This document shows positions 4,201 to 62,072 of a stretch of 64,000 nucleotides of DNA, piece by piece (position 1 is the first letter of the stretch; every line of letters begins with the position of its first letter). This DNA is from Ruditapes philippinarum (Eukaryota). A model generated the notes under the pieces. The model had not been told where the DNA came from. It saw only the letters and a program-made list of their open reading frames with translations, and ran no database searches. The DNA is taken from assembly GCF_026571515.1 (NCBI RefSeq), contig NW_026856822.1, positions 1 to 64,000 on the forward strand. Direction: 5' to 3'. Made by a program: the position numbers and the translations under genes.

Positions 4201-7200
4201 GTGTTTTATTGAATTTGGAAATCGAACTTGATTTTCGATGATTGATTAGAATCACCAGTGACAGAAATACACAACGGTTTGTGCCATAAAAGAGGAGACA
4301 TTATTATTCATCTCAAAGATTTTAACAGACTTAAAAGTTGCCTACGTCTGAATAGAATCATTAATTACATAAAAGTTATATCTTTTTAAATGATGTCCTG
4401 CTCCTAAAGGTAATTAAAAAAAATGCAATTTTGCGACTCAAAATGCAACCGTACCTCGTAATTTATGGGGTCAAGGGAGGGTATTATTTATTCATTAAAA
4501 TAAATTTTGAACTCAGAGCTCGGATGAAAATAAACTGTTTACCGCTAGAAGTCAACTTTTGAATGTTTTCAACTTGGATCCTCAAGCTGACTCAAAATTC
4601 AACTTTAGCATAATATTCTTTTTCTATATACATTGTACTTTGACATGGTATCTTTGAGCAGCGTATGCTCGAGACTTTGGATTCTTTCATGTGAGGAAGC
4701 TATCCAGCTAGCTTACGGAACGCAGGTGCGGTGGTTCTGCATGTGTTCGTCTGTGATGAGCATTCGACGCCAAAAATTGAAGAGATACGAGAACTGCCAG
4801 AAGCGGTGGCAGAACATGGGAACGTTTCGTTTCCCTCCGTATATCAACCAAACCAACTATTCTCAAGATGGTTTGAGGAAAGAAACGATAACGTTCCCGG
4901 ATTTCCTCACTGCTGTAATTCTCTAGTGGGTTCGAACGATCCCTAAATATACCCGCCGATCAAATGGTAGGCTTCTTAAATAACGCAACCGACGCTGCCG
5001 TGACACATAGTCAGCCATTTTTCAGAGTGTATTGTGGGATTGATCTTTAAGTTGATCCAACTAAATACGAGGATCAAAATATGGATCAATTTGATCCATA
5101 TTTTCGGATCAGATTTGATCGTAATTCTTTGTGAACACCAACTTTGATCTTGATCCGAAAATTGATCCAAAAACTTGATCTTGATCCAAATATAAGGATC
5201 AGAAATGTTAGTGAACATGGGGCCAGGTGCCCGTTTGTGCCTGAAATAATGCACGGACGGGCACCTGCGGTCTTCCTCCACCAGTAAACCTGGAAAGACG
5301 TCATATGACCTATACTCTGTTCGAACATTGTAAATAAATAAATAAATAAATAGAATTCTCCAAGTTGCTAAAATTTTGGATCCTCCAGCTGGCCCAAAGT
5401 TCAAGGTTCACTCAAAATCTAATTATTTTTTTTTTATTTTTGCATTAACTTTATGTCAGTAGATCTTAGATGTCCGATCTTACTTGTTGTTACCGATCTG
5501 CGGTATGTATCTTTATAATGCTTTGGATTATCTGTATTAAACTTTAATCCTTTGTGATATTGGCTGTCAAACCATGCTGCAAGCCCATATATCAGTTTTA
5601 AAAGTTTGGTTTTGATTAATGTACCTTAATAATGTAGTCATTCAGGGAGTGTTCATTGAAAACATACCCATACATGTCTACACCTAATCAAGTTTCTTAC
5701 ATGTTACATTTAGATAAGCTAAATAAATGGCCCTTTCAATATTTAATCTGGCACAATTTTTAATGAAATGTCTAATTAAGATTGCCCACGATTTATATCT
5801 TTGTCTTTGAAATACTATCATGTTTCTGTAAAATATGTGAATAAAAAAGCGGGAAAATGATGCAATTAGCTAAAAACAATGGAGTAAATGAAATTGAAAT
5901 GTGTACATTCTTTTAAAATGATGGAAAATGTGAGAAAAATATTTTTTGAGCTGGTAAATTGATGCAAATTTTTTATTTGATGAAAGTTATTCACTAAATC
6001 ATGTAAATGAACAAGATCATTTAAAATCCATTTTGACTACTTGAAAAACTGATTTTTAAAAAAAATAATTTTTTGCTCTTCTGTGTATCTGTCATCAGTG
6101 TATTGATATGTTCCTCTGACCAAGATATTGTATACATTTACTAAAATTTACAGATCAGTAACGAAAAAGTCAGAAAATAATAAAAAAAACAACACTATCA
6201 CACCTTCGGGGCACATGTTTTGTGTCAAACCGGTGTTATCAGTGTCTTGACAGCCAAAAACTTGTAGAAAAATAGAACGTGTTCTAACTTTCTTGCAAGG
6301 AATTATCTTCTTGGATGTCACATAATTTCTCTTTAAAACTCATTCAAGTAGGGTGTCTTCATTATCCAATACAAGAGAATATGATACTTGCATTCAAGAC
6401 TTGGATAGGTGTTATAAAAGGATTTGTTATAACGTCAACGTCAAGGTTGTTTCCTATAGAAATAATGAATATGTAAATAAAGACATTATCAAAAAACACT
6501 TTTTTTTTGATAAATTGTCCTTAAATTGTGTATGTTTCTATATATAGGGCATTTATTTATTCATTCATTTTGATGGGTTTTCAGTCAAACTAAAAATGTA
6601 AAGGTCATACGACGACCTTACTGATCTTCAAGCGGGATCTTAGATGCCCTAACGTGCATTATTATAGGGCATGATTGAATAAATTGTCCTTAAATAGTGT
6701 ATTTTCTATATATAGAGCACATTTATTTATTTATTCATTCATTGTGTTGGGTTTTTTTTGCCAAACTTAAACTGTAAAGGTCATACGACGACCTTACTGA
6801 TCTTCAAGCGGGATCTTAGATGCCCTAACGTGCATTATTTTAGGCCATGAGCGGGTCTGGGTAAAACCATCAATCCCCGGTGAATTTGCACGATAGCTGC
6901 CTCAAAAACCTGAAAGTATACGAACATGTGAAAACAGAAAGAAACAACACATTAAATTCAGACTTTTTGTCGTATTTATGTTACGTATTTTCGTTTTTTT
7001 CGCCACATCATGGCGTAAATCAGTCACCATAATCTTGGGTGTGTGTAACTGCATAAAACAAAGCGATTATAAGAACAGTTTGCGACAAATTCATAGAATA
7101 ATCTAAAGCAAATTAATTTTCAATCTCACCATGTTTCGGGTTATATGCCTGTACGGTGTAATGATATGCTTTCCAAGACAGTCTCGAACCAATGACCTCA

Positions 7201-10200
7201 ATGCCGCAAGTTCCGGCTTGTCTGCCATGCATGGGTGGTACAGCAACACGACCGCACCATGCTTTAATGGGAAAACAAACACAAACAGTAATAAAAAGAA
7301 AACAGTTAACATAATATTATGTCGCACTGTTGTATTTCTACAGCATATATTAATCATTTACTTTATTCGTGTACATACATACATACATACATACGTACAT
7401 ACATACATACATACATACATACATGTACGAAAAAATAATCTAAAGATGTATTAGGTTGCCTGTACAAGATTTGTTTATTGATATAAAACTTGTCCTACAA
7501 AACGTAATTCAGTTAATAAAATGATATATGCCTGATGTATTCTCTCCTACTTTTTGGCGTCTATTTCATTAGAAAGCCCTTTTTAGTGGGAATGCTTGAT
7601 TAGTTTTTTTTTCAGCATGACTTGATTGTTTCGTGATCTGTCTAATTACTTTCTCTAAAAGTTTTATGCTAAACTATGACTCCACAAACACTAATAATCT
7701 AATATATAGAAAAGTCTACCTCTAAAGAATGAACCCATCTTTGCGGCGGAAGGTATTTATATTCTCCAAACATTGGCCACAATGGACGATGGCTTCCACT
7801 GAAATAAAAACAACAACAATTTTATCAGATTACCACTTTCGACTTCCCTTCGCGGCGTGCATGTCGCTCGGAAGGCATATGTCACACCAGATGGGTGACC
7901 TAGTTAGGTCACTTAGCTGGTGTGACCTAACCAACGGCGAAGGGTGTGGCCCTAAAGAGAGCTGCTGCTCCCGGAAGAGGTGCCTTTCCTCTATTGTCAA
8001 CCATTGTTCAAGAAGCGAAGAAACGGGTCCTAGAGAAGATCTACGACGAACGACAGCATGAAAAGACCTCCGTTGCGGCTCTACGATCGACGACGTTGCA
8101 GGCGAATTAAGTCCTCCGTTACAGGCTCTACGACCAGCAATCGTAACAGAGGCCGATAGTCTGGGACATATGGGTTTACCGGCGCCCAGTATAAATAAAA
8201 CTAAAACAACGATCAGTCTAACATTTTAAATAAACAAGCCCAGGATATAGATATCATTATGCATGAAAAGAAGCAAGAGAACGAATGTGAAAACTTCTTT
8301 GCAAAATTGCTCTTCCAAGTGAGATTTTTTTTCGTTAAAATTTCAAACGCTCAGAAAAAAGCCTAAAAAACCTTGAATATGAATTTCTTCCATAGATTGG
8401 CTAGAACAATTAAAACTGAAAGAATATGCAAAAGATCACGTTGAAAAATACTGAGAAATAAATTCTTTGCACGATTTTATTGGAAAAAAAAGCGTTGCAA
8501 CGCTTTTCGATTTTTGAACATTTTTCACAATTAGAATAATCATTCTTGAAAAACGGAGTGGTGATATGAAATATGAAATTTTTCACACACGTTATTTTTC
8601 TAAACCTACATCAAATGGAATATTAATATTGAAAAAATATTTCCAGTCCCGTCATTCCAACAAACCTCAGTGGAGTTTTTAATGTGAGTTGGCCTAATGG
8701 AATATCTGTATTACAATGAATAACAATGTTGAATGTATTTAGATCCAGACATTTCAATAAACCACGAAATAATTATTAAGGAAGTTGTTGTGAAGTGTGA
8801 GATATATGATCCGATATAACATATATATGTAAAGCAGATAATAAAATGTTCTAGAACAAAAAATATACTATTCATCATATAAATGTTTTTTTAAACCTCT
8901 TAAAGGGACTTCACTGAGGTTTTTCGAATTGATGGAACTGAAAATATTTTTTGTATCATTTGATGTAGGTTACGACCACTAATCTTTGTGCAAAATTTCA
9001 GATCATACGAGCACTTTGTTTTTCCAAATTGATAATATTCAAATTGATAAAAAAGTGACCCAAAATGAAAAGCGTTTAAACGTTTTTCACTCCAATAAGG
9101 CTAAGAAAAGCATAAAAATACGATTTATTGAATAAAATGTATTTCTTAGCTATCTCTGCATATATTTCTATTTAAAGTGCCCCAGATCATTCATGTAAGA
9201 CATTCAGATGGTATGTTTTTAGGCTTTTAAACCTCAATGGAGTCCCTTTAAGAACTTTATCATTTTTGTCATGCAACTTTTTATAAGAATATCTAAATGA
9301 TACATTTTTTACTGTTCTTATCAATATCTGAAGAAAAATGTGCCCATTGTAGTCCTATCCACTTTTACTATTTTAAACATGTTTTATAACTAGAAATTAA
9401 AGAAGCTATAAAAACTGTACTGATGTTAATTATCTCATTTTACGAATATAAAGAACGTGAATGCCTATATAACACAACTTCTTATTTCAAATTTATATTT
9501 AGAGGAAATTGTGAACAAAATCGTGACATTTGAGAGAAAAATAACGAGTTTTTATTCGAGACATTTTCTAGGGAATTATGGTAATTTTGAGAGACAAAAA
9601 AGCATCAACAGTATATTGAGACATCTACACAATAAAGCAAAAACAGCGTTACAAATATACATTTGGTCGTGAAATGATATGAAAGCAACAACAGCTGCAA
9701 CAACAGCAGCAACAACATAAACAAAAAAATGTTGGAAGAATGAATTGGGCTTTACTCGGGTGTTACACACTTCAAAACAACAACAGGGGTTATAACCACC
9801 CTATCTTATGAAGCTAAGAGATGCATAATATTATACTCCAGTTATTCGTACCTATTAAGTCGCCATGGAAAAACGGCGGCAGCAATTATTATACCTAAAT
9901 CATTAAAGCAACCACAAGGGACACAACAACAAAATACATATAAAACGCAAACACATAACAAAATAAATATTATAATGCTTTTTATATCGCCTATAACCAA
10001 ATTATTGAAAGTGTAAGAAATTGGTTTCGTAGATTTGTGTATGTACAGGCGATGACTTGTCGCGACGGCAATTATCAAAAGTAGCCAGACTAAATCGGTG
10101 ACAAGCCTTCAAGAGTTGTCTCCTCGTTACGGCCGTGAATGTATGGGTAATTGAAGGAGACAACAAAAGACGACGCAAAACGACAAATGAATAGAATATT

Positions 10201-17584: not shown

Positions 17585-17741
17585 NNNNNNNNNNNNNNNN
17601 NNNNNNNNNNNNNNNNNNNNNNNNNNNNNNNNNNNNNNNNNNNNNNNNNNNNNNNNNNNNNNNNNNNNNNNNNNNNNNNNNNNNNNNNNNNNNNNNNNNN
17701 NNNNNNNNNNNNNNNNNNNNNNNNNNNNNNNNNNNNNNNNN
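17585..17741. other. Assembly gap (N run)
   Basis: N bases. Confidence 1.
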
Positions 17742-18579
17742 NTGGATCAACCTTATCAATATCAACATTTCTTGAAAAGAAATTAATAGTACATGTATAT
17801 ATATTGTATATCTTTTGACAAATCATGACCCCTTCTAAGGAAATGTACGGTATTCTGATGGTACCGGGTTCCACTTCCAGTCCGGCTGCGATATATTTAT
17901 ATATTTATCATATTAAACTTTGATAACGGTTTTGATAAATGAACTTTGACCTTGATCTTGCTCCTGATCGAACATACGGGGGAAGGGTAAGACTTATAGT
18001 TATTAAAATCGCGACTACGAAACTGTTCAAATCATTCACGTAGAATTTACTCTTGTTATCTCGGAGCCGCGAGTCCGGCGAACAAAAGTCAAGATAACGA
18101 AAAATCGAGATAAACGTGTAAACTATAATATGGGTTTAGTTAAAAAATTGAAAACGCTTTTAAAAACTACCTTCAGTTTTCAGGTTTAAACATATTTTAT
18201 ATAGAATAAGTGTACATGTTCAATTTACAACAAAACAATTATTTATAGTTTATTTATAGAATTTGGCCGAAAGCAAACGCTTATGGAAGCCATTTTAAAA
18301 TGTTGACAAGATGACGTTTTTTAAAGCCTTTCCGTAATAAAACAGTAGGTGAAAGGAGACAACATTTATTTAATAATATCAGAAACGAAGTAAAATAGAA
18401 TTGTTCAATTGCAGTAATCCAAAGAAGTAAGTATAGTAATAAGAAAAGTATGTCTGTAATTGAGATCGGTAATTAGCATAACCGCAACGCACTGCTACAT
18501 ATGGAAACCTGTTGCCTCCATGAATAGTTTCGAGAAGAACTACACTATCCAAGCATAGGCATAACGAAATATAGATTCT

Positions 18580-23323: not shown

Positions 23324-24096
23324 CAAATAGGGGATTTAATAGAATAATATGTAAAGATTAATTATGAAATATACATGCACAGAAATAAATTGAAAGTCGA
23401 ATATTTCGGTTATTCTTAGTCCGATTTGAATAAAAAGCGTTGTAACGCTTTTCAACTTGGGCAATTTTTACACAATTAGAATAATAATATTCTTGAAAAA
23501 CAAAATGAGGTAATGATTTGAAATTTTGCACAGAATTCGAAGTTATTATCAAATGGAAAATTAGTATCGAAAAATTATTTCAGGCCTGTCATGTCAATTT
23601 TTAAGCCTCAGTGAAGTTCCTTTAAGTGTATACTGTTCCCGTTTGGTCCTCGCCTTTGGAATAGTTCAAAATAATTATGTAGATCTAACTCTTTTAATTA
23701 AAATACCCAAAAGACATTAAATTTAGGCACTAAAAGTCTTACTACATATGATAATGATACTTATATTTGCACGATTTATTTTAGAATAACAAGGATCTGA
23801 TTTTCAAAGAAAATGACGAAAAAATATAAAGTTTTAAATTGAAGTACAAGCTACGTCTATTTGTTGTCTAACGGCACCTAAAGTACACCATAAATTATAT
23901 TTTGGGTGACTTACGGCGCCTAAAGTACACCGTAGTTTATAGCTCCGAAGTTTGACGGAAAATTCCGAATTTCATCGGCTCTTCCCATTGCGGATAATAA
24001 TAGCCGAGGAGATCAGATTGTTTGTTTGCGCTCCAGTGCGCTTTCGGTTTAATATCTATTTCGATTCTATTTATAGAATATCTTCCTATACACAAA

Positions 24097-27000
24097 ATGG
24101 CAGCAGTGACAGGGTCGCGTGTTTCCCGTCGTATTTTAACAAAGTTAGCAGCCGATAAAACATGGATACTACCAGGTTTGAATATTATTTATAAATCGAC
24201 TTTAAAAATAATTATGCTTTGAGCAATTTTATCAAATATCGAACAGTATTAATTGTAATAATTGCATGACGTGTATACGCTTGCTACACATGACGTGTTT
24301 TACCGTACTTACTCTTGTAATTGAACATATTTTTTTTATTATTTTTAGTTACCGGCTTAAAAGTTCAAAATGGTGCCACGTTATCAAGGTTTATGTCGAA
24401 CAAGAGCGGAGAAAGGGTATAGATCTACAGGACTTGTGTATTTTTGTTTATTTAATTAATAGCAAATCCCTACATGTATATTAGTTCGATATAGGAAGCT
24501 TTAAACTTATAAAACAGACGCACACTTTCGAATCCGTTCCTGGAACTAACCAGTACTGATCAAAGAGTGTAAATTTTCTTGCTCAAGGAAACAATGATTT
24601 GCCTCTGTCGGGGTTCGAATCCATATGGCTCGCGATCATTAGATTACTAGTTCTGAAACTGTATCGCGATATCATCACGATAGCGTGCGTGTATGACGAT
24701 ACAGTATCACGATACAAAAATATAATGATGCTTACATTTAGACAAAACATGTGTGTTTGACTCATTTGCCGGCAAATGCATAATGTTACATGGGGAATTT
24801 TCCTTTCAAATGAAAATGGTTACTGAATAGAGCAGTGTTATTTTATACTTCTACAGATAATCTAATAACATATAATAACGCAAACTTAGCATTATCAATT
24901 TACCAAATAACAAGATACATGCCCAGGTCTAGGCATAATGTTCACGGGCCGAAGACACTATATTTTACAAAATTATTAATATCCTCTCTAATGTAACAAT
25001 AGCCTGGCCAGCGATGATATTTTAATGATAGTCTGTTCTGACCTTGCATTTGCACTGTATTTAGGTCCAGATTTATATATAAGAACTTTATTTCCCGGTA
25101 TAAATTACCAATTCACCATATGCCCATTATAATTATGTAACATTTTGGGAGGGCTGATCGCTAATGTTGAAAGAACTTGGGAGCATCTCTTTTTGCTGTT
25201 TATTATTTCGAAAAACTGTTGTTTATTTTTGTATGTTAACATGTATAATAACAACGGCAAAATATGATTAAATCTAACATAATATTTAATCAAATGAATT
25301 ATGATTTTAAATATTTTATGAAATTTAAACTTAATTATTTCTACAGTGTTTATTCTAGGATTCGAAAAACAGGGGTGATTTTTATTGAAAAGCGAGAATT
25401 TATTACATTTGTTGATCTATTCCCTTCTTTCTTAAAGTAAAATTTCCCCCCTTCCTATGAAAAAATAGGGGGGAATCCTCAAAAATATGGGTGAATCCCC
25501 CCATCCCCCCTCCTAGAATAGACACTGTTTCTATATTTTTATTAGCAGTTTATGCAGTGCGTTTCCTGATCTTTATATGTATTTAAATGCACAGAAAACC
25601 ACACAGTTAAAGAAAATGCTGACATCACCGGACCTTGAGTTTATTATGGAAGCGCACAATGGACTTAGTGCAAAAATTGTCGAGGAGGCAGGTTAGTATT
25701 CAGAGGGAAAAAAGATTTATGGTCTCTTAAAAGGAATAATTATCGTGCATGTCTTTTATTTGACCATTCAGGTTAAGATCTCCAATGATTTCAATATGAT
25801 TGTTGCGCATGATAATTTCTCTTACCTTGACCTTTTCCTCTCTGTTATGTGTTAAATAAATGTTATAAAATGCCAGATTTATGTATTGCATTGTTGTGAA
25901 ACATACATTTTTTATAAGCAGACACGTGTGCGTGATACTCAAAACATAAAAATGTTCACATGTGAAAGTAAGATTTTTTTTTACAAAGTTCATTTTTTAC
26001 GTTTAACTATTACGTAAACATTGTTTCGCGATGTAATAATTGACTAAGAGTTAATACACGCATCTTTTATTATTCTAGGGTTTAAGGGAGTATGGGGCAG
26101 CGGTCTGTCAGTGTCTGCACAGCTTGGGGTTCGAGACAGTAACGAAGCATCGTGGACACAGGTTTGTGAGAAAGATTATCTAAGATTGTGGAGAACATTC
26201 TGCAATTGAAATACATCTCATACTTTGCAATCAAATATAAACTAAGAAATCAATTGTAATTTCATCTGCAAATTGCATAACATCAGGGACATAAATTAAT
26301 ATATATTTCTACAGTACCACCTCGGCAAAGCAACACCCTGTAAGACAAAGATTTTGATTGTTCAAGGGATGTTTTGCTCTTGAACAGTTAGTAACACAAT
26401 TGTCCTGATCTAGATCTTTGACCGGGCGGAGGCTATTATTATAAAATTGAAGGACTTGAAAAAAGTTTGCTTGTGTTTCACAGGTTGTAGAAGTATTAGA
26501 GTTTATGAGTGACGCCACCACTGTTCCTATCCTGCTAGATGCCGACACCGGATACGGTAATTTCAACAATGCACGGCGTCTCGTGCGTAAGTTGGAGTCA
26601 CGTGGTGTTGCAGGTGCGTGCCTGGAAGACAAATTGTTTCCGAAGACAAACTCTTTACATGACGGGAGGGCACAGCCGTTAGCTGATATAGAAGAATTTT
26701 CGTTAAAAATTAAGGTAAATTTTTAATGTCGTCTGGAGACTTAAGTTTGATATAGAAAATGTTTTTTTTTAACAAAGTTCTGTCCATGTTTTCTTCCTCA
26801 ATTTGATAAGTTGTAGTTTATGCAGTCATATGTTATCATGAGTCTTTGTTTTGCTTTGGTAAAGTAAGTTAATATTTAATTGATAGGAACGAGTTAAGTT
26901 GTTTACATAAAAATAAAAATGCACTAGGAAAGATCTAACTGTGGCTGGGATTCGAACTCGCAACCAGACACTTATAAACAAAATTAATGATCCTTTGACA

Positions 27001-29868
27001 CTGTTGTCAGATGTTGTACTTATAATAATGAGTGTAGGTGTGTATTCAACCCTAAAATTAATATTCGAATGTGTGGAATATATTCGAATTATCGAATTTC
27101 GGATGTTCAGATAGATATTTGATTTTTATTTAATTCTTTGGTATTTTAATTAATGAAATATATTTGGATAACAACTAAAACTAAGTTTTCATGTGCAGGC
27201 TTGTAAAGACAGCCAGAGCGACCCAGATTTTTGTATTGTTGCACGTGTCGAGGCATTTATCGCTGGTTGGGGCCTTGACGAGGCTTTAAAAAGAGCGGAG
27301 GCATACAGGAACGCTGGTATGATTCTCTACTTTGTTAAAAATGTTATTTATAAGTTTAAATTCGAATGATTGATGATAACATAGAGTGGTACACATCTAT
27401 TCGAGTTTTTACTGCCACATCATTGATTGATTGATGATTGGTTGAATGAATTGACGATTGAATGGTTAATGATTAAACGATTATTGATTGAATTGAATGG
27501 TTGAATTTGATGATTGAATCGAATGATTGATTATTGATAGATTGATGATTGAATCAGTGATACTTAAATATTTAACTATGACCAGCAAAATAAATGGAAT
27601 GCTTTAATAATTCCCAATGTCTGTGCAAGTCTCGACAGGGGTAACTTTAATGATTTATTTTAGGGACTCAACCGACTCGCCTCTCACCGCATTGATACCT
27701 ATTTCTCAATTAAAAATACCATTTAGAGAAAAATAAAGAGATAAAAAAAACTTTATTTATGGAAAAAAATTATTTATAAAATAAAAAATTTATAAAAAAG
27801 ATATATGAACTGTTAAACATGTTTTAAACTGGATATTGCATTAATTAAAACGTTGTAAAATATTATGCTGTTGAATTAATTTTAATTTATCTGTCTCCTA
27901 TGCAGTCCTATTTATAGTTACGAATTTTATTAATTTAAATAGAAAACGAAAGTAGCATGCGGACGATGTTGATACTGTGAAATAAACTTTAAAGATCACT
28001 TAAAATCATTCGAGTAACCGAGTACTCGATAGGAAAAGTGACCGAGTACTCGAGTAGTGATTTTTGTATTCGTTGCCATCCCTAGAAATAATTATGAAGA
28101 GGTACCCTTAAAATATGTGGTAATCTGAAATATGTTTAATCTAATTTCAAGGTTTAAACATATGAGAATCACTTGAAAAAATGAGTTAGCAAGAAAACAC
28201 CATTTTATCAATATTTTCAATATTCCTTACTGCAAATTTATGAAATATAGAAATTTGTTACTGTTTACTTATAGGTGCTGATGCCATTTTGATGCATAGT
28301 AAGAAAAGTGATCCGTCCGATATTGAGGCCTTTATGAAGGCTTGGAACAATCAGGTATGTTTTCATAATCAGGCTGTTAAGACCTACCTGGCTTCTTGCG
28401 CTGCCGCGTCAGTACGGTGGTTTTGTTTTGGCGCCTGAACAGCTATGGTCATCTGCTATGACTGAGTATTAAACCACGCCCACGTGTGACACATGGGTGT
28501 GTCTGTGATTTTGTTAGAAAAGTGCAATGCTTTATTCAAGTTAATGTATTCTTTCAGGGACCGGTTGCAATGGCACCTAGGAAGTAAATGGCATGCATTT
28601 CAGTCCATATATTCTTTCAGGGATCAGTTCTGATCGAACAAGTACCTACAAAATTGTTACCACGCCGACTCAGAATTTCTATAAATGGGCGTGTCTTTGG
28701 TTTTATTGGGAAAGTTAATGCCATGCACGGAAGTTAATATTTATTTTCAATTCAGTGACAAAATATGTGACCACGCCAACACAGAATATTTATGACATTA
28801 AGGCGTGTCAAAGATTTATTGGGAATGATAATGGCATACATTGTTATTACATTCAAGTTATAGTTAATACAAATTCATTTTAGTTCGATTGTGTTGTAAG
28901 CTATAAGCTTATTGAAATAATCTCGAATTCGTTCCTGGAACAAACCAGTCCTAAGCAATGAGAGTAAAGTTTTTTGCTCAAGGAAGCAACGGCTTGCCAC
29001 AGACAGGGTTTGAACCAACGCGGCCAGCAAACCTTAGATCATTAGTTCAACGCGTTAACAACTCAGCCACGCCGCCATACATTCATTTTCATGTATTTCT
29101 TTTCAGGGACCAGTTGTGATAGTACCTACTAAGTATTATACCACGCCCACTCAGCACTTCCAAGACATGGGCGTGTCCATGATTATATGGGCCAATCATA
29201 ATCTCAGGTCGTCCATTAAAGCTATGCAAGAGACATCGGCTCGTATTTTCAAAGACTCTTCACTGACTGGAGTAGAACCTAATGTAAGTCCTGTGAAATT
29301 TCCTAATTGAAATACAAAATGTACGTGTATATTGAATATTTCAGACACTGCATCATACATTATGGATGATTTATTCAAACGTCATTTTTAAACCGATTTG
29401 CCTAACATTTTGTGATAAATTATTTATTCATAAAACTTACAACTGTGTCNNNNNNNNNNNNNNNNNNNNNNNNNNNNNNNNNNNNNNNNNNNNNNNNNNN
29501 NNNNNNNNNNNNNNNNNNNNNNNNNNNNNNNNNNNNNNNNNNNNNNNNNNNNNNNNNNNNNNNNNNNNNNNNNNNNNNNNNNNNNNNNNNNNNNNNNNNN
29601 NNNNNNNNNNNNNNNNNNNNNNNNNNNNNNNNNNNNNNNNNNNNNNNNNNNNNNNNNNNNNNNNNNNNNNNNNNNNNNNNNNNNNNNNNNNNNNNNNNNN
29701 NNNNNNNNNNNNNNNNNNNNNNNNNNNNNNNNNNNNNNNNNNNNNNNNNNNNNNAAAGTTTTTTTTTTTCTGTATTGATTTCAGATTGTTTCAGTGAAAG
29801 AGGTATTCCGGCTACAGAATGACCAAGAATTAGTCAAAGCTGAAGATATATACCTTCCAAAGGAGTAA
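24097..29868 (+). CDS. PEPM: Phosphoenolpyruvate phosphomutase (PEP mutase), 338 aa, 9 coding exons
   Basis: Exons 24097-24175, 24349-24416, 25595-25691, 26079-26161, 26484-26714, 27199-27316, 28275-28354, 29107-29283, 29785-29868. All introns are GT-AG and phases are consistent (1017 nt). Contains [40 protein letters not shown], the PEP-mutase signature [37 protein letters not shown] and [10 protein letters not shown]. It is colinear with the Mytilus enzyme as recalled. Exons 1-2 are less certain than exons 3-9. Confidence 0.97.
24528..24650 (-). mobile_element. CORE-like SINE fragment
   Basis: CCTGGAACTAACCAGTACTG..TTTCTTGCTCAAGGAAACAA..GGGTTCGAATCC; same family as 28900-29077. Confidence 0.65.
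25344..25527. mobile_element. Small MITE with 17-bp TIRs (hAT-like CAG termini)
   Basis: CAGTGTTTATTCTAGGA ... TCCTAGAATAGACACTG (1 mismatch); no clean TSD. Confidence 0.7.
27365..27560. repeat. (TGAT/TGAA)n low-complexity tract
   Basis: Seen directly in PEPM intron 6. Confidence 0.85.
28441..28835 (+). pseudogene. Three to four decayed partial duplicates of PEP mutase exon 8 inside intron 7
   Basis: TTCTTTCAG|GGACCGGTTG (28558) and TTCTTTTCAG|GGATCAGTT..GTACCTAC..ACCACGCCGACTCAG..ATGGGCGTGTC (28621) match the true exon 8 start TTTTTCAG|GGACCAGTTG..GTACCTAC..ACCACGCCCACTCAG..ATGGGCGTGTC. Further ACCACGCC..GGC/TGTGTC units are at ~28472 and ~28769. Confidence 0.8.
28900..29077 (-). mobile_element. 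tRNA-derived CORE-like SINE
   Basis: On the minus strand: A box (GTGGCTGAGTTGTTAACGCG), B box (GGTTCAAACC), then a CORE-like CCTTGAGCAAAAAACTTTAC. Confidence 0.75.
29450..29754. other. Assembly gap (N run) in PEPM intron 8
   Basis: N bases. The flanking exons join in frame, so no coding exon appears to be missing. Confidence 1.
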
Positions 29869-39000: not shown

Positions 39001-39444
39001 CAAAATCGAGGCAAATGTAACAAGGATACAAATTTTATCTGATTTCTTTCTGTGTTCAAGTTCGAGTCTAAAATTATTAATCTTCTTGAAAAAATATAAC
39101 TATTTTCTTGTAATAAAAACAACTAAATATATCTACTATATCTTAACAACAAATTCTTCTCTTTTTAAAAAAAAAAATATTTCACTGTTTATAATGTTTC
39201 AATGTTCTAGCTGAGGGGTCTGTAGTTTGAGTCCATTTAGGCATCCAAAAGTATGGGATCCATTGACTATGGCCGGCGTTATATTTCTCAAACATTCGCC
39301 GGTAGTAGAGCGCTTCTTTCGATCGTGGGGCATTGTGGGTATATTTCTTTGCTGCATCTTCTACCTCGCTGTCGTTTATCTGATAAAACAGAAGAATGCA
39401 TATTTAATTCATTATTTTAAGTGATATGAAAAAAAATCTCAATA

Positions 39445-39790
39445 AAGGCACATTATGCCTCAGAAATACAATTTTTCTAAATTCTTTAGCAATGTCAAAC
39501 ATGTGTTTAAAATTGTTTCAATAATGGATTTAGAGCATGTTACATGTTTAACATACAAAAAAAGTAGTGCTGACTGTGCAGTAATGTGCTGTAAAGTTAG
39601 CAAAACATAAACAAATTAGGATTTTGACTTCCATACAAAATACTAATTTAATTTAAATATATCAATTGCTTACAGAGCGAAAGAGGCAACAGATGCTCAA
39701 TATGCCAAAGATGTGTCGTTTTTGGAAATGGTAACAAAATACCAAACAGAAATCTAAATGGTAGCATTTTTGAGGTATAATAGGCCTTAA
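39445..39790. mobile_element. Second (T)TAA-flanked MITE family (AGGCACATTATGCCTCAGAA terminus)
   Basis: The same terminus occurs at ~13370 and ~42580; the latter closes with TTCTGGGGCGTAATGGGCTTTTAA at ~42946. Confidence 0.6.
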
Positions 39791-40194
39791 AGAAATTGTA
39801 AATAGGATATGATCACGAATTCATATACCAGAAGTTTAATAATAACCTTTAAACATTTGCAAAGAATAAAAAACTAGATGTTCCAAAATTAAAGATAAAC
39901 GAAACCTACCTGAACGTCAATATGGTTCTGCAGAACTTCGTACCACGACTTGGTAACGGATGACACGCCATCACTGAACGCTTCCTTTGGACGCCATAAA
40001 ATCTCCTCTGGTAATAAACCAATACCGGAAAATGCAGACCGCAGTAAATATTTTTCAATACCCTTTTTTGGGCGTTTATCACCATCAGGTAGAGACATGT
40101 AATAATGGCTTAAACGATGGTCCAAGAATGGCACACGTAACTCAAGTCTAAAATTAAAATAGAGGAATAATTCTTTAGTTTATACATTTATTTA

Positions 40195-47747: not shown

Positions 47748-50700
47748 GTTGTGCGGCGTGCACCTGCTTTCAGATCGAGAACGTTTAGATTTATTTTTCT
47801 CTGGTATTTTAGCGGTTCCCACTGCCTACTCCCGGTTCTATAACATCCTGAACATCGTAGCTTAACATCCCAGTCTAGTTTACGTCTTGCCTACCTACCA
47901 TAAGGCTCAAGAAACGGGTTTTCATCACCCTCCTTTGTTCCTAACGTAAACAACCGGACTTCCGGTCACCATTTTTCGGACATTTCCTGATTCGGATACG
48001 GACTATAGACCACAAAGCAAAGCATCTACTTATTAGTATTTGAACCATACAACTATCTAACTTTTATTAAAACACCAGATTAAACCTGTACCTGGTCAAA
48101 AGTGACTCTTATGCAAGAATTTTCCAACTTCCAGCATATTCAATGTAAGCACTTGTAGCAAATTCGGACAAATTTATTTCGAATATGTGACTTACGTCAC
48201 CATTTTTCTCCTGACATACACGCTACTAGCTCTTAGCAGCTTCGGTCCTCCACCTTTGGGATTATCCTACGCAGAACCTACTAACTGGAACCTCCATGCC
48301 CACCAGCTTTTATTGTCAGGTGACCGTCACCCAAACCCAGGTCCTACTTACAAGGTTCCCTGTGGAATTTGTGCCAAGCCATGCAAAAGTAACCAGCACG
48401 CTGTTGCCTGTGATAGTTGTAACACATGGTACCACATTAAGTGCACCCAGATGTCTCTTGCTGTATACAACGGACTCACCCAGAACACTAGTTGGATCTA
48501 CTTTACATGTGGTATACCAAACTTCTCAACAACACTTTTTGAAACCCTGTCAGCTGACTCTATCAACACATCCATTGCAACAAACAACTCTTACAGCGTA
48601 CTGTCAGATGGCCCCCAACCCGGACTTCTCCACTCACAGTTTCTCATCAGTCAGCTCAATTGGATCTCCACAACACACCTCGTCACCTTTCAGGAAAACA
48701 AGGCAACCACACCAGGTAGCTGCAACCATCCTTCGCATCCTCGTAGTAAATTTCCAGAGTCTGAGGGCTAAACGGGCATCCTTCTGGCTGACTTTGACTG
48801 AAACCAAGCCAGACATCATCATTGGCTGTGAGACATGGCTCTACCCTGGTATCCATGAAAAGGAAGTTCTCCCAGCTGGATACTACTTCGTAGCCAGGAA
48901 AGACAGAGAGGCAAATCGTTATGGTGGTGTCATCATCGCTGCGAAAGACAACATATGCGGCACTGAACTAGACACAGAATCAACATCAGAGATAGTTGCA
49001 GCTTCCTTCAATGGTCCAAACAACAGCCAGCTTGTCATCTGTTCTACATACCGCCCACCAAGCAGCGACCTCACTTACATGGAAAACCTCTGCACAGGCA
49101 TCAAGAAACTACACACAGAGAACAAAAACGCCACCATCTGGATTGCAGGTGATATGAACCTACCAGATATTGATTGCACCTTAAACTCTGTGGTTGGGTC
49201 AAACTACCCAAAGAACATTAGCCAGTGCATGCTTGACACTATGTATGACATTTCATCTGAACAGATTGTGGATTTTACAACCAGAGGCAATAACACCCTG
49301 GACCTCTTCATAACAAATAGACCTTTTCTTATCGAACGCAGTAATGCACTCCCAGGACTCAGTGACCATGACATGATCCTTGTGCAGGCCAGGACTATAG
49401 CAGCACGAACAAAAGCACCACAGAGGAAGATACTTTTGTGGAAAAGGGCTTACCAGACCATCAGACGCTCTGCTGTACAAGTTTTCACAACCAACTTCAT
49501 ACAGGACCACTCTGCCACATCTGCTATTGACAACATGTGGACTGACTTCACATCTGCAATCTCACAGATCATAGAAACCACGGTCCCATCCAAGATGTCA
49601 ACAACTAGGCACAACCAACCTTGGATCACAGCAAAGATCAAGCGCCTTTCTAGAAAAAAGAAGAGAGCATTCAAGAAATCCCAGTGCCAAGGGACAGCAG
49701 ACGACATCAAGCGGTACAAAGACCTTCAAAGGGAGCAACACTATGAATGTCGGAAGGCAAACAAAGCTTATGTAAGAGACATGGTTACAGAAAATCCTAA
49801 GAAGCTCTACACTTTCATCAAAAGGAAGCGGTCTGACAGCACGGGAATCTCTCCACTAAAATGTGATGGTGTAACTCACAGCGACCCAAGTAAGAAGGCT
49901 ACAATATTGAACAAACAGTTCACTGGGGTGTTCACTACAGAAGACACAACAGATGTGCCAGCCATGGACGGAGAAAGATACCCAGACATGCCTCACTTCA
50001 CAGTAGGAGCTGTGGGCGTCAAGAAACTTCTCCTCAACCTGAAACCCCATAAAGCATCTGGTCCTGACAACATACCTACACAATTCCTGAAGGACTATGC
50101 CGAAGACATTACTCCGGCTCTCACCCTCTTGTTCAACGCCTCTTTACAACAAGGAACAGTACCTTCAGTCTGGAAGAAGGCAAATGTATCACCTATCTTC
50201 AAAAAAGGTGACCGTAGCAACCCTGCCAACTACAGACCCATTTCTCTCACATCAGTATGCAGCAAACTCCTAGAACACATCCTACATAGCCAAATTATGA
50301 AACACCTTGACCATCACAACATCCTTTCAGATCAACAACATGGTTTAGAAAACAACGCTCAACTGAAAGCCAGCTTCTTCTTACTCTTCAAGACCTGTCA
50401 TCAGCCCTGGATCAAGGGGAACAAGTAGACGCCATCCTACTAGACTTCAGTAAGGCGTTCGATGTTGTGCCTCACCAACGACTCCTTCTCCAAGGTGGAT
50501 CACTACGGCATCAGAGGGACAGTCAGAAGCTTGATTTGAAGTTTCCTGTCTGCCGCAGCCAGTTTGTCGTTGAAGGCCATTCATCTGCATCCTCCCCCAG
50601 TTACATCCGGTGTACCCCAGGGGACAGTACTAGGTCCTTTACTGCTCCTCCTTTACATCAATGACCTACCAAGGTGCGCGACTTCCATCAGCCGCCCTAT

Positions 50701-60990: not shown

Positions 60991-61947
60991 GCCCCCGTTT
61001 CTGACCAGAACTCTGTCATTCAGTTCAATTTTGGCATGTCTTACCCTTTGATCATATCGTCGCTTGTGGCGGTAAGTCTGCCGCTTACACTTACGACTAG
61101 CTATTTTATAGACATAGCTCAGGCGTGTTTGCATTCCCATGGCATAGTTGGAATGACTCCGGTATTTTTAAGAATCTTCGGGTTCGATTCCAAGGAAGTC
61201 ATCAATTGTAAAGCGTGGATGTCTACCAAACATTAGAAAGTGAGATGTTTACCCGGCACTTTCATGCCTAGTATGTACTAAAAGCGGTACATGAGCCTTC
61301 CAATTGGACTTCTGAGAATCTTCAAGAGTTCCCACACATATCCAACAGGGTTTGATTAAACCGTTCCGCCATACAGTTACCTTGTGGTGTTATGGGGTGG
61401 TTCTACTCTTCTCTGTTAGCCAACTTACACAGCTCAATATAACAGCGCTTTCAAAATTGCGACTTTGGTCACTGTGTAAGGGGCTCTGAAACCCAAAGTG
61501 ACAGATGAACTGTTTAAAAAGGATTTTAGCTGTAATATAAGCTATTTGATTCCGAGTGGGTATAGCCTGAACATAACGAATGAAATGATCGGTAATGACC
61601 AGTTTATACTCATATCCAACGGAAGGCATTTCAAGAGATAAATAATCCTTACAGACTTATTCTAGAGGAAAAGTCGATTCAACTGAGACAAGGGGTGTTG
61701 CGGTACTGACTGTCGTCTTCTGCCAGATACATCTTTGGCATTCTCGTATGCGTCTATCAACAAAATGATCTAGACCAGACAAATTAAACTGGGATTTTAT
61801 CAAAGAAAGGGTACGGTCTCTACCCAGATGACCAACATCGTCATGTAGCCCTGAACATATAAATTCATGAAAAACACTGGGGGCTACTAATTGAATAACT
61901 GGGTGTCCAGAAACAAAACCATTTTTGTAAAGAATACCTTCTTTCAA
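60985..61947 (-). mobile_element. Gypsy/Ty3 LTR-retrotransposon integrase remnant
   Basis: HHCC zinc finger (HDDVGHLGRDRTLSLI..CQRC), catalytic core (LVITDHF, LHSDQSRNFES, RTTP..), C-terminal KRRYDQRVR..DRVLVRN; several stops and frameshifts. Confidence 0.9.
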
Positions 61948-62072
61948 GAAAAAATTAGGTCACTCGAGTTCACCCATGCAGCGAGAGTGGCGGGAGCGTT
62001 ATTTATTCCAAATGCCATGCGATTGCATTCATAGAGACCGAGGGTCCTACTGTGAATGCAGTCTTGGCTTTG

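Follow-up and report, generated by a model that had tools for sequence, protein, structure and literature searches.

Comparative evidence for a probable mitochondrial presequence on the phosphoenolpyruvate mutase of the clam Ruditapes philippinarum

Lipids and glycans that carry aminoethylphosphonate (AEP) rank among the main constituents of molluscs, cnidarians and ciliates. The equilibrium of phosphoenolpyruvate (PEP) mutase, which forms phosphonopyruvate from PEP, is unfavourable and is pulled by phosphonopyruvate decarboxylase (Ppd). In the literature searched, no compartment was found for animal AEP synthesis. The structurally best-known PEP mutase is that of Mytilus edulis (P56839; PDB 1PYM, 1M1B, 1S2T-W). 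The related bacterial enzymes AepX/PepM of Bacillota, Chloroflexota and Calditrichota, which belong to the TIGR02320 equivalog and are mostly 67-77% identical to the core of the clam protein described here, open at the first core helix without an N-terminal extension and are encoded in operons with Ppd, often with a C-terminal fusion.

PEP mutases of the same family that also have an N-terminal targeting sequence have been predicted in protists. In one preprint, PEPCK, PEP mutase and Ppd are predicted inside the mitochondrion-related organelle of the rhizarian PCE SSF, and the same three enzymes are stated to occur in the mitochondria of Brevimastigomonas motovehiculus (bioRxiv 10.64898/2026.09.23.753574). 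The predicted mitochondrial proteome of Andalucia godoyi includes a PEP mutase with a presequence, ANDGO_08130, in a row that is ambiguously labelled with 2-methylisocitrate lyase and is absent from the main article (PMC7050145, supplement 1, sheet G row 188); a Ppd motif was not found in the mitochondrial table. In the parts of these sources consulted, all cases are in-silico predictions for protists and none concerns animals. A full-text search that covered few subscription journals yielded no statement of a mitochondrial PEP mutase in animals, although surveys of mitochondrial proteomes may list it. The string 'mitochondri' never occurs in the coral pathway paper PMC3640398, and the passages retrieved from PMC3640398, PMC5302490, PMC13535095, PMC3499245, PMC8942020, PMC2784872 and PMC8100219 give no localisation of PEP mutase. 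The original prediction of a mitochondrial clam enzyme had left its novelty undecided; protist predictions do exist, but none was found for animals, and a mitochondrial PEP mutase has apparently been predicted for protists and gone unstated for animals.

We analysed a stretch of 64,000 nt of R. philippinarum DNA, referred to as the window, which contains a PEP mutase gene with the following features:

24097..24175, + strand: exon 1 (79 nt, GT donor), with the start ATG in strong context, extension residues 1-26 and a predicted amphipathic helix at residues 7-17
24162..24164, + strand: out-of-frame ATG in strong context (A-3/G+4); its 41-codon frame overlaps Met42
24349..24416, + strand: exon 2 (68 nt, AG/GT), residues 27-49, with the R40-F41-M42-S43 junction
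24370..24372, + strand: second out-of-frame ATG in strong context (A-3/G+4); its 20-codon frame overlaps Met42
24393, + strand: second in-frame Met (Met42), in exon 2, weak context
25595..25691, + strand: exon 3 (AG acceptor), start of the catalytic core, matching the beginning of bacterial PEP mutases
26079..26161, + strand: exon 4
26484..26714, + strand: exon 5, with the active-site motif (10 residues)
27199..27316, + strand: exon 6
28275..28354, + strand: exon 7
29107..29283, + strand: exon 8
29785..29868, + strand: exon 9, including the stop codon

All nine exons are bounded by GT-AG introns, and the product is identical over 338/338 residues to XP_060593301.1, a predicted RefSeq model from R. 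philippinarum that already includes the 41-residue extension. The splice assignment draws on the DNA itself, on this agreement with RefSeq and on the contigs of relatives. As had been claimed, exons 1 and 2 splice in frame, with canonical ends and an open frame, and the Met at 24393 is preceded by 41 residues. A recount returned the same four Arg, three Lys and one Asp, and the first ATG is indeed strong (A-3/G+4) and the second weak (T-3/T+4). Two points had been overlooked, namely that the extension is present in RefSeq models and that two strong out-of-frame ATGs, at 24162 and 24370, lie between the in-frame starts. An in-frame TAG is found at 24001, 96 nt 5' of the first ATG, and there is no ATG between 23814 and 24096. 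The AG at 24075-24076 is a possible acceptor for a non-coding exon further 5'. Intron 2 (24416/25595, phase 0) separates the extension almost exactly from the bacterial-type core, so that exons 1 and 2 encode the entire addition. The word 'mitochondrial' is in none of the PEP mutase names among the matches listed, as far as the names were displayed.

The clam protein scored 400.6 bits against TIGR02320 (cut-off 319.55) and, among sister families, fell short of the cut-off for both phosphonopyruvate hydrolase (238.7 vs 374.4) and PrpB (147.1 vs 354.4). Residues E157, D158, K159, N165 and S166 are invariant in 60 aligned sequences and form the EDK-x5-NS motif, which we take to be the active-site motif of PEP mutase. 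Mytilus PEP mutase structures were the top fold matches. Judged by these sequence and fold comparisons, the clam protein is a true PEP mutase (EC 5.4.2.9), and from its 87% identity to P56839 across 289 residues we infer that it converts PEP to phosphonopyruvate.

To place the extension we compared it with bacterial loci, of which 80 were fetched, 74 with the anchor motif and six without. In 73 of the 74 anchored loci, the start chosen by its Shine-Dalgarno sequence precedes MEAH by 19-21 residues, which places it at the first core helix, where the core of the clam protein also starts. Even the longest possible start gives 25 residues or fewer in 56 of them; the clam protein has 47 residues ahead of the bacterial start position. 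The search for related proteins gave 7,861 matches, and the best 120 were analysed. Among these, 71 have at least 15 extra residues, six reach the first helix with fewer than 15, 18 begin inside the region kept by bacteria and are truncated calls, and the anchor is missing from 25. The latter are mostly fragments, and two cephalopods among them do carry extensions. Named carriers among the best 120 include two sponges, six cnidarians, many molluscs, Lingula, Periplaneta and Timema, so the extensions that had been expected in other molluscs and in cnidarians are there.

An independent metagenome set of 80 contigs (71 anchored, nine without anchor) was divided post hoc into eukaryote-like and bacteria-like contigs. 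The extension is present in all 21 contigs with a core that, by score, resembles named eukaryotes more than the bacterial set. An upstream in-frame stop precedes it in 20 of these, and therefore the first Met truly opens the frame; all 20 also pass the charge rule described below. The other 50 score closer to bacteria, and 13 of them are borderline (within 21 bits), with the extension in 12 of the 13, all on contigs of 1.0-1.25 kb. A long possible start was seen in only five of the remaining 37. Logan contigs of 1.1-1.4 kb encode complete extended proteins of mussel and clam-like type, and their length excludes introns like those of the clam gene. In a quick tree with narrow bacterial sampling, 35 of the 36 eukaryote-labelled rows fall on one branch with an SH-aLRT of 96, and all 36 group with a value of only 68. 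Judged by its distribution over the loci, proteins and contigs compared above, the extension is a eukaryotic addition.

Gene models vary at the 5' end. The Ylistrum balloti RefSeq isoform X2 (XP_060078363.1, P0128; 294 aa) has no extension; at the KTT point, which equals the position of clam intron 2, it is joined to another, short first exon; it is a candidate cytosolic isoform or a model artefact. In P0121 (Mercenaria X1), P0140 and P0153, 17-27 residues are added before the conserved first Met, and these are probably 5' UTR read in frame.

According to the original prediction, the characterised Mytilus enzyme begins at the equivalent of the second clam Met, and this is correct: P56839, like the PDB chains, has 295 aa and corresponds to residues 35-329 of the M. 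edulis RefSeq protein XP_071179346.1, with 294 of 295 residues identical. The same 34-residue front end occurs in the models of M. galloprovincialis, M. trossulus, M. californianus and M. coruscus, and is also encoded by two Logan contigs of ~1.15 kb. The genomic model shares the R-x-M-S junction of the clam. The Mytilus database sequence differs from the clam protein in lacking the 34 residues that the M. edulis model encodes upstream, and the 41-residue clam extension is identical to the Mytilus one at just 11 of 48 positions. Of the claim that the classic sequence is only the mature form, the part concerning 34 missing, genome-encoded residues is thus borne out; the textbook enzyme is likely to be the proteolytically trimmed mature form of a longer precursor.

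A classical cleavable matrix presequence adds about 15-60 residues outside the folded domain, is recognised by TOM20 and TIM23 and is cut by MPP at an R-2 site, with Icp55 trimming giving R-3. Such presequences share with the clam extension its length, positive charge, scarcity of acids, disorder and R-x-hydrophobic-S ending, and a putative amphipathic helix may be a further common trait. In the clam, import and cleavage are predictions from sequence. As a crude charge rule made for this analysis, we required a net charge of at least +2 and at most one acid in the first 20 residues. This was the case in 60 of the 71 extensions; among controls, 67 of 551 windows taken from the core and, in the 64,000-nt window, 158 of 474 open reads beginning with ATG also passed. 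With a third of such random reads passing, the rule discriminates weakly for any one sequence. The clam extension has a net charge of +6 over 41 residues and a single acid (Asp). Pooled extensions are enriched over the core in Arg (8.6% vs 4.8%) and Ser (14% vs 6.8%) and depleted in Asp+Glu (2.5% vs 13.1%).

The hydrophobic moment was above that of own-sequence shuffles in 63 of 71 extensions. For the clam extension alone amphipathicity is modest: its moment was 0.79, with 133 of 2,000 shuffles as high for an 11-residue window, and for an 18-residue window 538 shuffles equalled the clam value. The R-F-M-S stretch had been read as an MPP/Icp55 R-2/R-3 site, and R40-F41-M42-S43 does have that form. 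A junction R-x-[FLYM]-[SA] is found in 27 of the 71 extensions (500 shuffles: mean 3.2, maximum 9) and R-x(1,2)-S in 54 (mean 20.3, maximum 30); the 71 sequences share ancestry, so these shuffle counts overstate independence. The extension diverges much faster than the core: identity to Mercenaria is 29/48 vs 271/290 and to Nematostella 8/48 vs 244/290, and extensions are barely alignable between phyla. In the AlphaFold model of the clam protein, pLDDT is below 50 at residues 1-44, with a helix at 10-19 inside this low-confidence region, and mostly above 90 in the core.

We also looked at Ppd, in which the original prediction had proposed looking for similar extensions, and these were found in molluscs and Tetrahymena by a search restricted to proteins of at least 402 residues, a restriction that selects for extensions and cannot show the absence of short forms. 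Basic N-terminal extensions occur on the Ppd of Haliotis, oysters (Crassostrea, Ostrea, Saccostrea), Argonauta, Nucella, Sphaeroforma and Tetrahymena. Those of Haliotis, Crassostrea, Ostrea, Saccostrea, Argonauta and Tetrahymena are free of acids, and the Haliotis extension ends in R-R-M-S-S. All three Ppd proteins that were scored exceeded the TIGR03297 cut-off. The charge rule was passed by 32 of 37 hand-picked eukaryote-type Ppd rows, many of them isoforms or near-copies, compared to five of 35 long-called bacterial Ppd starts; the Ppd of Liolophura and Strigamia did not pass. A Bacillus Ppd query retrieved only bacterial-type proteins and Atlas only bacterial clusters, and a Bacteroidota-type query reached eukaryotic Ppd. 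Without the length restriction, the extended forms of Nucella, Sphaeroforma and some further sequences were added, and 121 of 150 rows begin at the core as in bacteria; this profile search put animal Ppd in one 50% cluster and gives no count of unextended animal forms.

PEP mutase-Ppd fusions with a eukaryote-type Ppd start motif were found in Telonema subtile (647 aa), in a Logan protein (650 aa) and in a 728-aa protein (P0479, P0427, P0441). The 728-aa fusion, P0479, lies on a 6,975-nt contig, has no N-terminal extension and forms a long branch in the tree. The fusions point toward a shared compartment, though P0479 is unextended. As Ppd must pull the mutase equilibrium, shared targeting of both enzymes is what a real compartmented pathway predicts. 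On the IMG/VR contigs L085:2092-5613 and L086:2092-5673, an AEP transaminase-Ppd fusion (732 aa) adjoins a nucleotidyltransferase-PEP mutase fusion. PMC8942020 makes earlier mention of a giant-virus AEP pathway. As a control, the viral contigs yielded nothing useful.

Taken as a whole, the comparison supports the presequence part of the original prediction: close bacterial relatives lack the extension, eukaryotic ones have one of presequence-like make-up and junction, and Ppd has one too. We consider it very probable that the first 41-42 residues of the clam PEP mutase are a cleavable mitochondrial matrix presequence. That the extension is instead 5' UTR read in frame, with Met42 as the true start, is hardly credible, even though the RefSeq record is a predicted model and the characterised Mytilus sequence begins at the equivalent Met. 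The frame stays open across two introns and its strong first ATG follows an in-frame stop; Mercenaria and Mactra have homologous N-termini, most orthologues have no junction Met at which they could start, and the 20 5'-complete contigs begin at the extension. It is also quite improbable that the extension is translated as a disordered regulatory tail or as the signal for another organelle, with the enzyme cytosolic or elsewhere. PEP is abundant in the cytosol and the secretory pathway is where the phosphonate end products arise, both of which would suit such an enzyme. However, the make-up and the junction motif are conserved though the sequence is not, and Ppd, an unrelated enzyme of the same pathway, has the same pattern. 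Signals for the ER and for peroxisomes could likewise be dismissed. An ER signal peptide would need a hydrophobic core of 7-15 residues, and none is present (the maximal 10-residue hydropathy is 1.30 in the clam, and only two of 71 relatives reach 2.0), and neither PTS1 (C-terminal, SKL-like) nor PTS2 (N-terminal, R-L-x5-H-L-like) occurs in any of the 71 extended PEP mutases.

The second part of the original prediction, dual localisation through two starts, did not hold up well. A mitochondrial long form together with a substantial cytosolic short form, made from Met42 or from an alternative first exon, appears unlikely. A second Met is common in bivalves (R-x-M-S), and P56839 begins there; the different first exon that Ylistrum isoform X2 joins at KTT offers another possible source of a short form, and the PEP mutase of Trypanosoma cruzi is reportedly dually localised. 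In the clam, however, ATG 24097 is strong and Met42 weak, and the frames from 24162 and 24370 run past Met42, so leaky scanning or re-initiation should not reach it from the full-length mRNA. Leaky scanning would call for a weak first ATG, a conserved in-frame second one and no strong ATG in between, a pattern the clam gene does not have. Only 27 of the 71 extensions have a Met within the last 16 residues, and six of the 20 5'-complete eukaryote-like contigs have one near the junction. The X of R-x-X-S is M in 12 of 52 cases and otherwise L, S, N, Y and others; an M at this place is also expected from an Icp55-trimmed R-3 site.

If the extension is a presequence, C-P bond formation would occur in the matrix. 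By analogy with mitochondrial import in general, the precursor would be translated from ATG 24097, imported through TOM/TIM23 and cut by MPP after F41, with R40 at -2. Icp55/XPNPEP3 would then remove M42, so that the mature enzyme would begin at S43 and correspond to the crystallised Mytilus form. Matrix PEP, from mitochondrial PEPCK or import, would be turned into phosphonopyruvate by PEP mutase and then into phosphonoacetaldehyde by a co-localised, thiamine pyrophosphate (TPP)-dependent Ppd, which would pull the unfavourable equilibrium. Phosphonoacetaldehyde or AEP would then have to be exported to supply the synthesis of phosphonolipids and glycans.

More broadly, we lean towards the view that the eukaryotic C-P front end, PEP mutase plus Ppd, is a matrix pathway conserved across jakobids, ciliates, sponges, cnidarians, molluscs and insects, which would be fed by matrix PEP, would need a carrier exporting phosphonoacetaldehyde or AEP, and would include an MPP/Icp55-processed Mytilus enzyme. 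The system as such is not of a new kind. If located in the matrix, phosphonate production would depend on the mitochondrial supply of PEP and on TPP, and a mitochondrial exporter of phosphonate intermediates would be predicted. The invertebrate mitochondrial proteome would also gain a pathway, one that inventories built on vertebrates would overlook, and the reference entry for the PEP mutase with the best-known structure would be corrected.

Around the gene, tblastn revealed no Ppd or AEP transaminase gene within the 64,000-nt window, and scanning 80 of its 207 candidate frames revealed no other phosphonate gene. Other features of the window were:

7106-7357, - strand: DUF3105 exon
17585-17742: assembly gap (N run)
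29450-29754: assembly gap (N run) within the last intron of the PEP mutase gene
39185-40179, - strand: asparagine synthetase exons
48106-50425, + strand: LINE-type element (PHD, endonuclease, RT)
61393-61959, - strand: LTR-type integrase pieces

In addition, intron 7 contains several short pieces (28552-28832) that resemble the start of exon 8, with an acceptor and GPV/PTK-like codons, and these are perhaps degenerate tandem copies.
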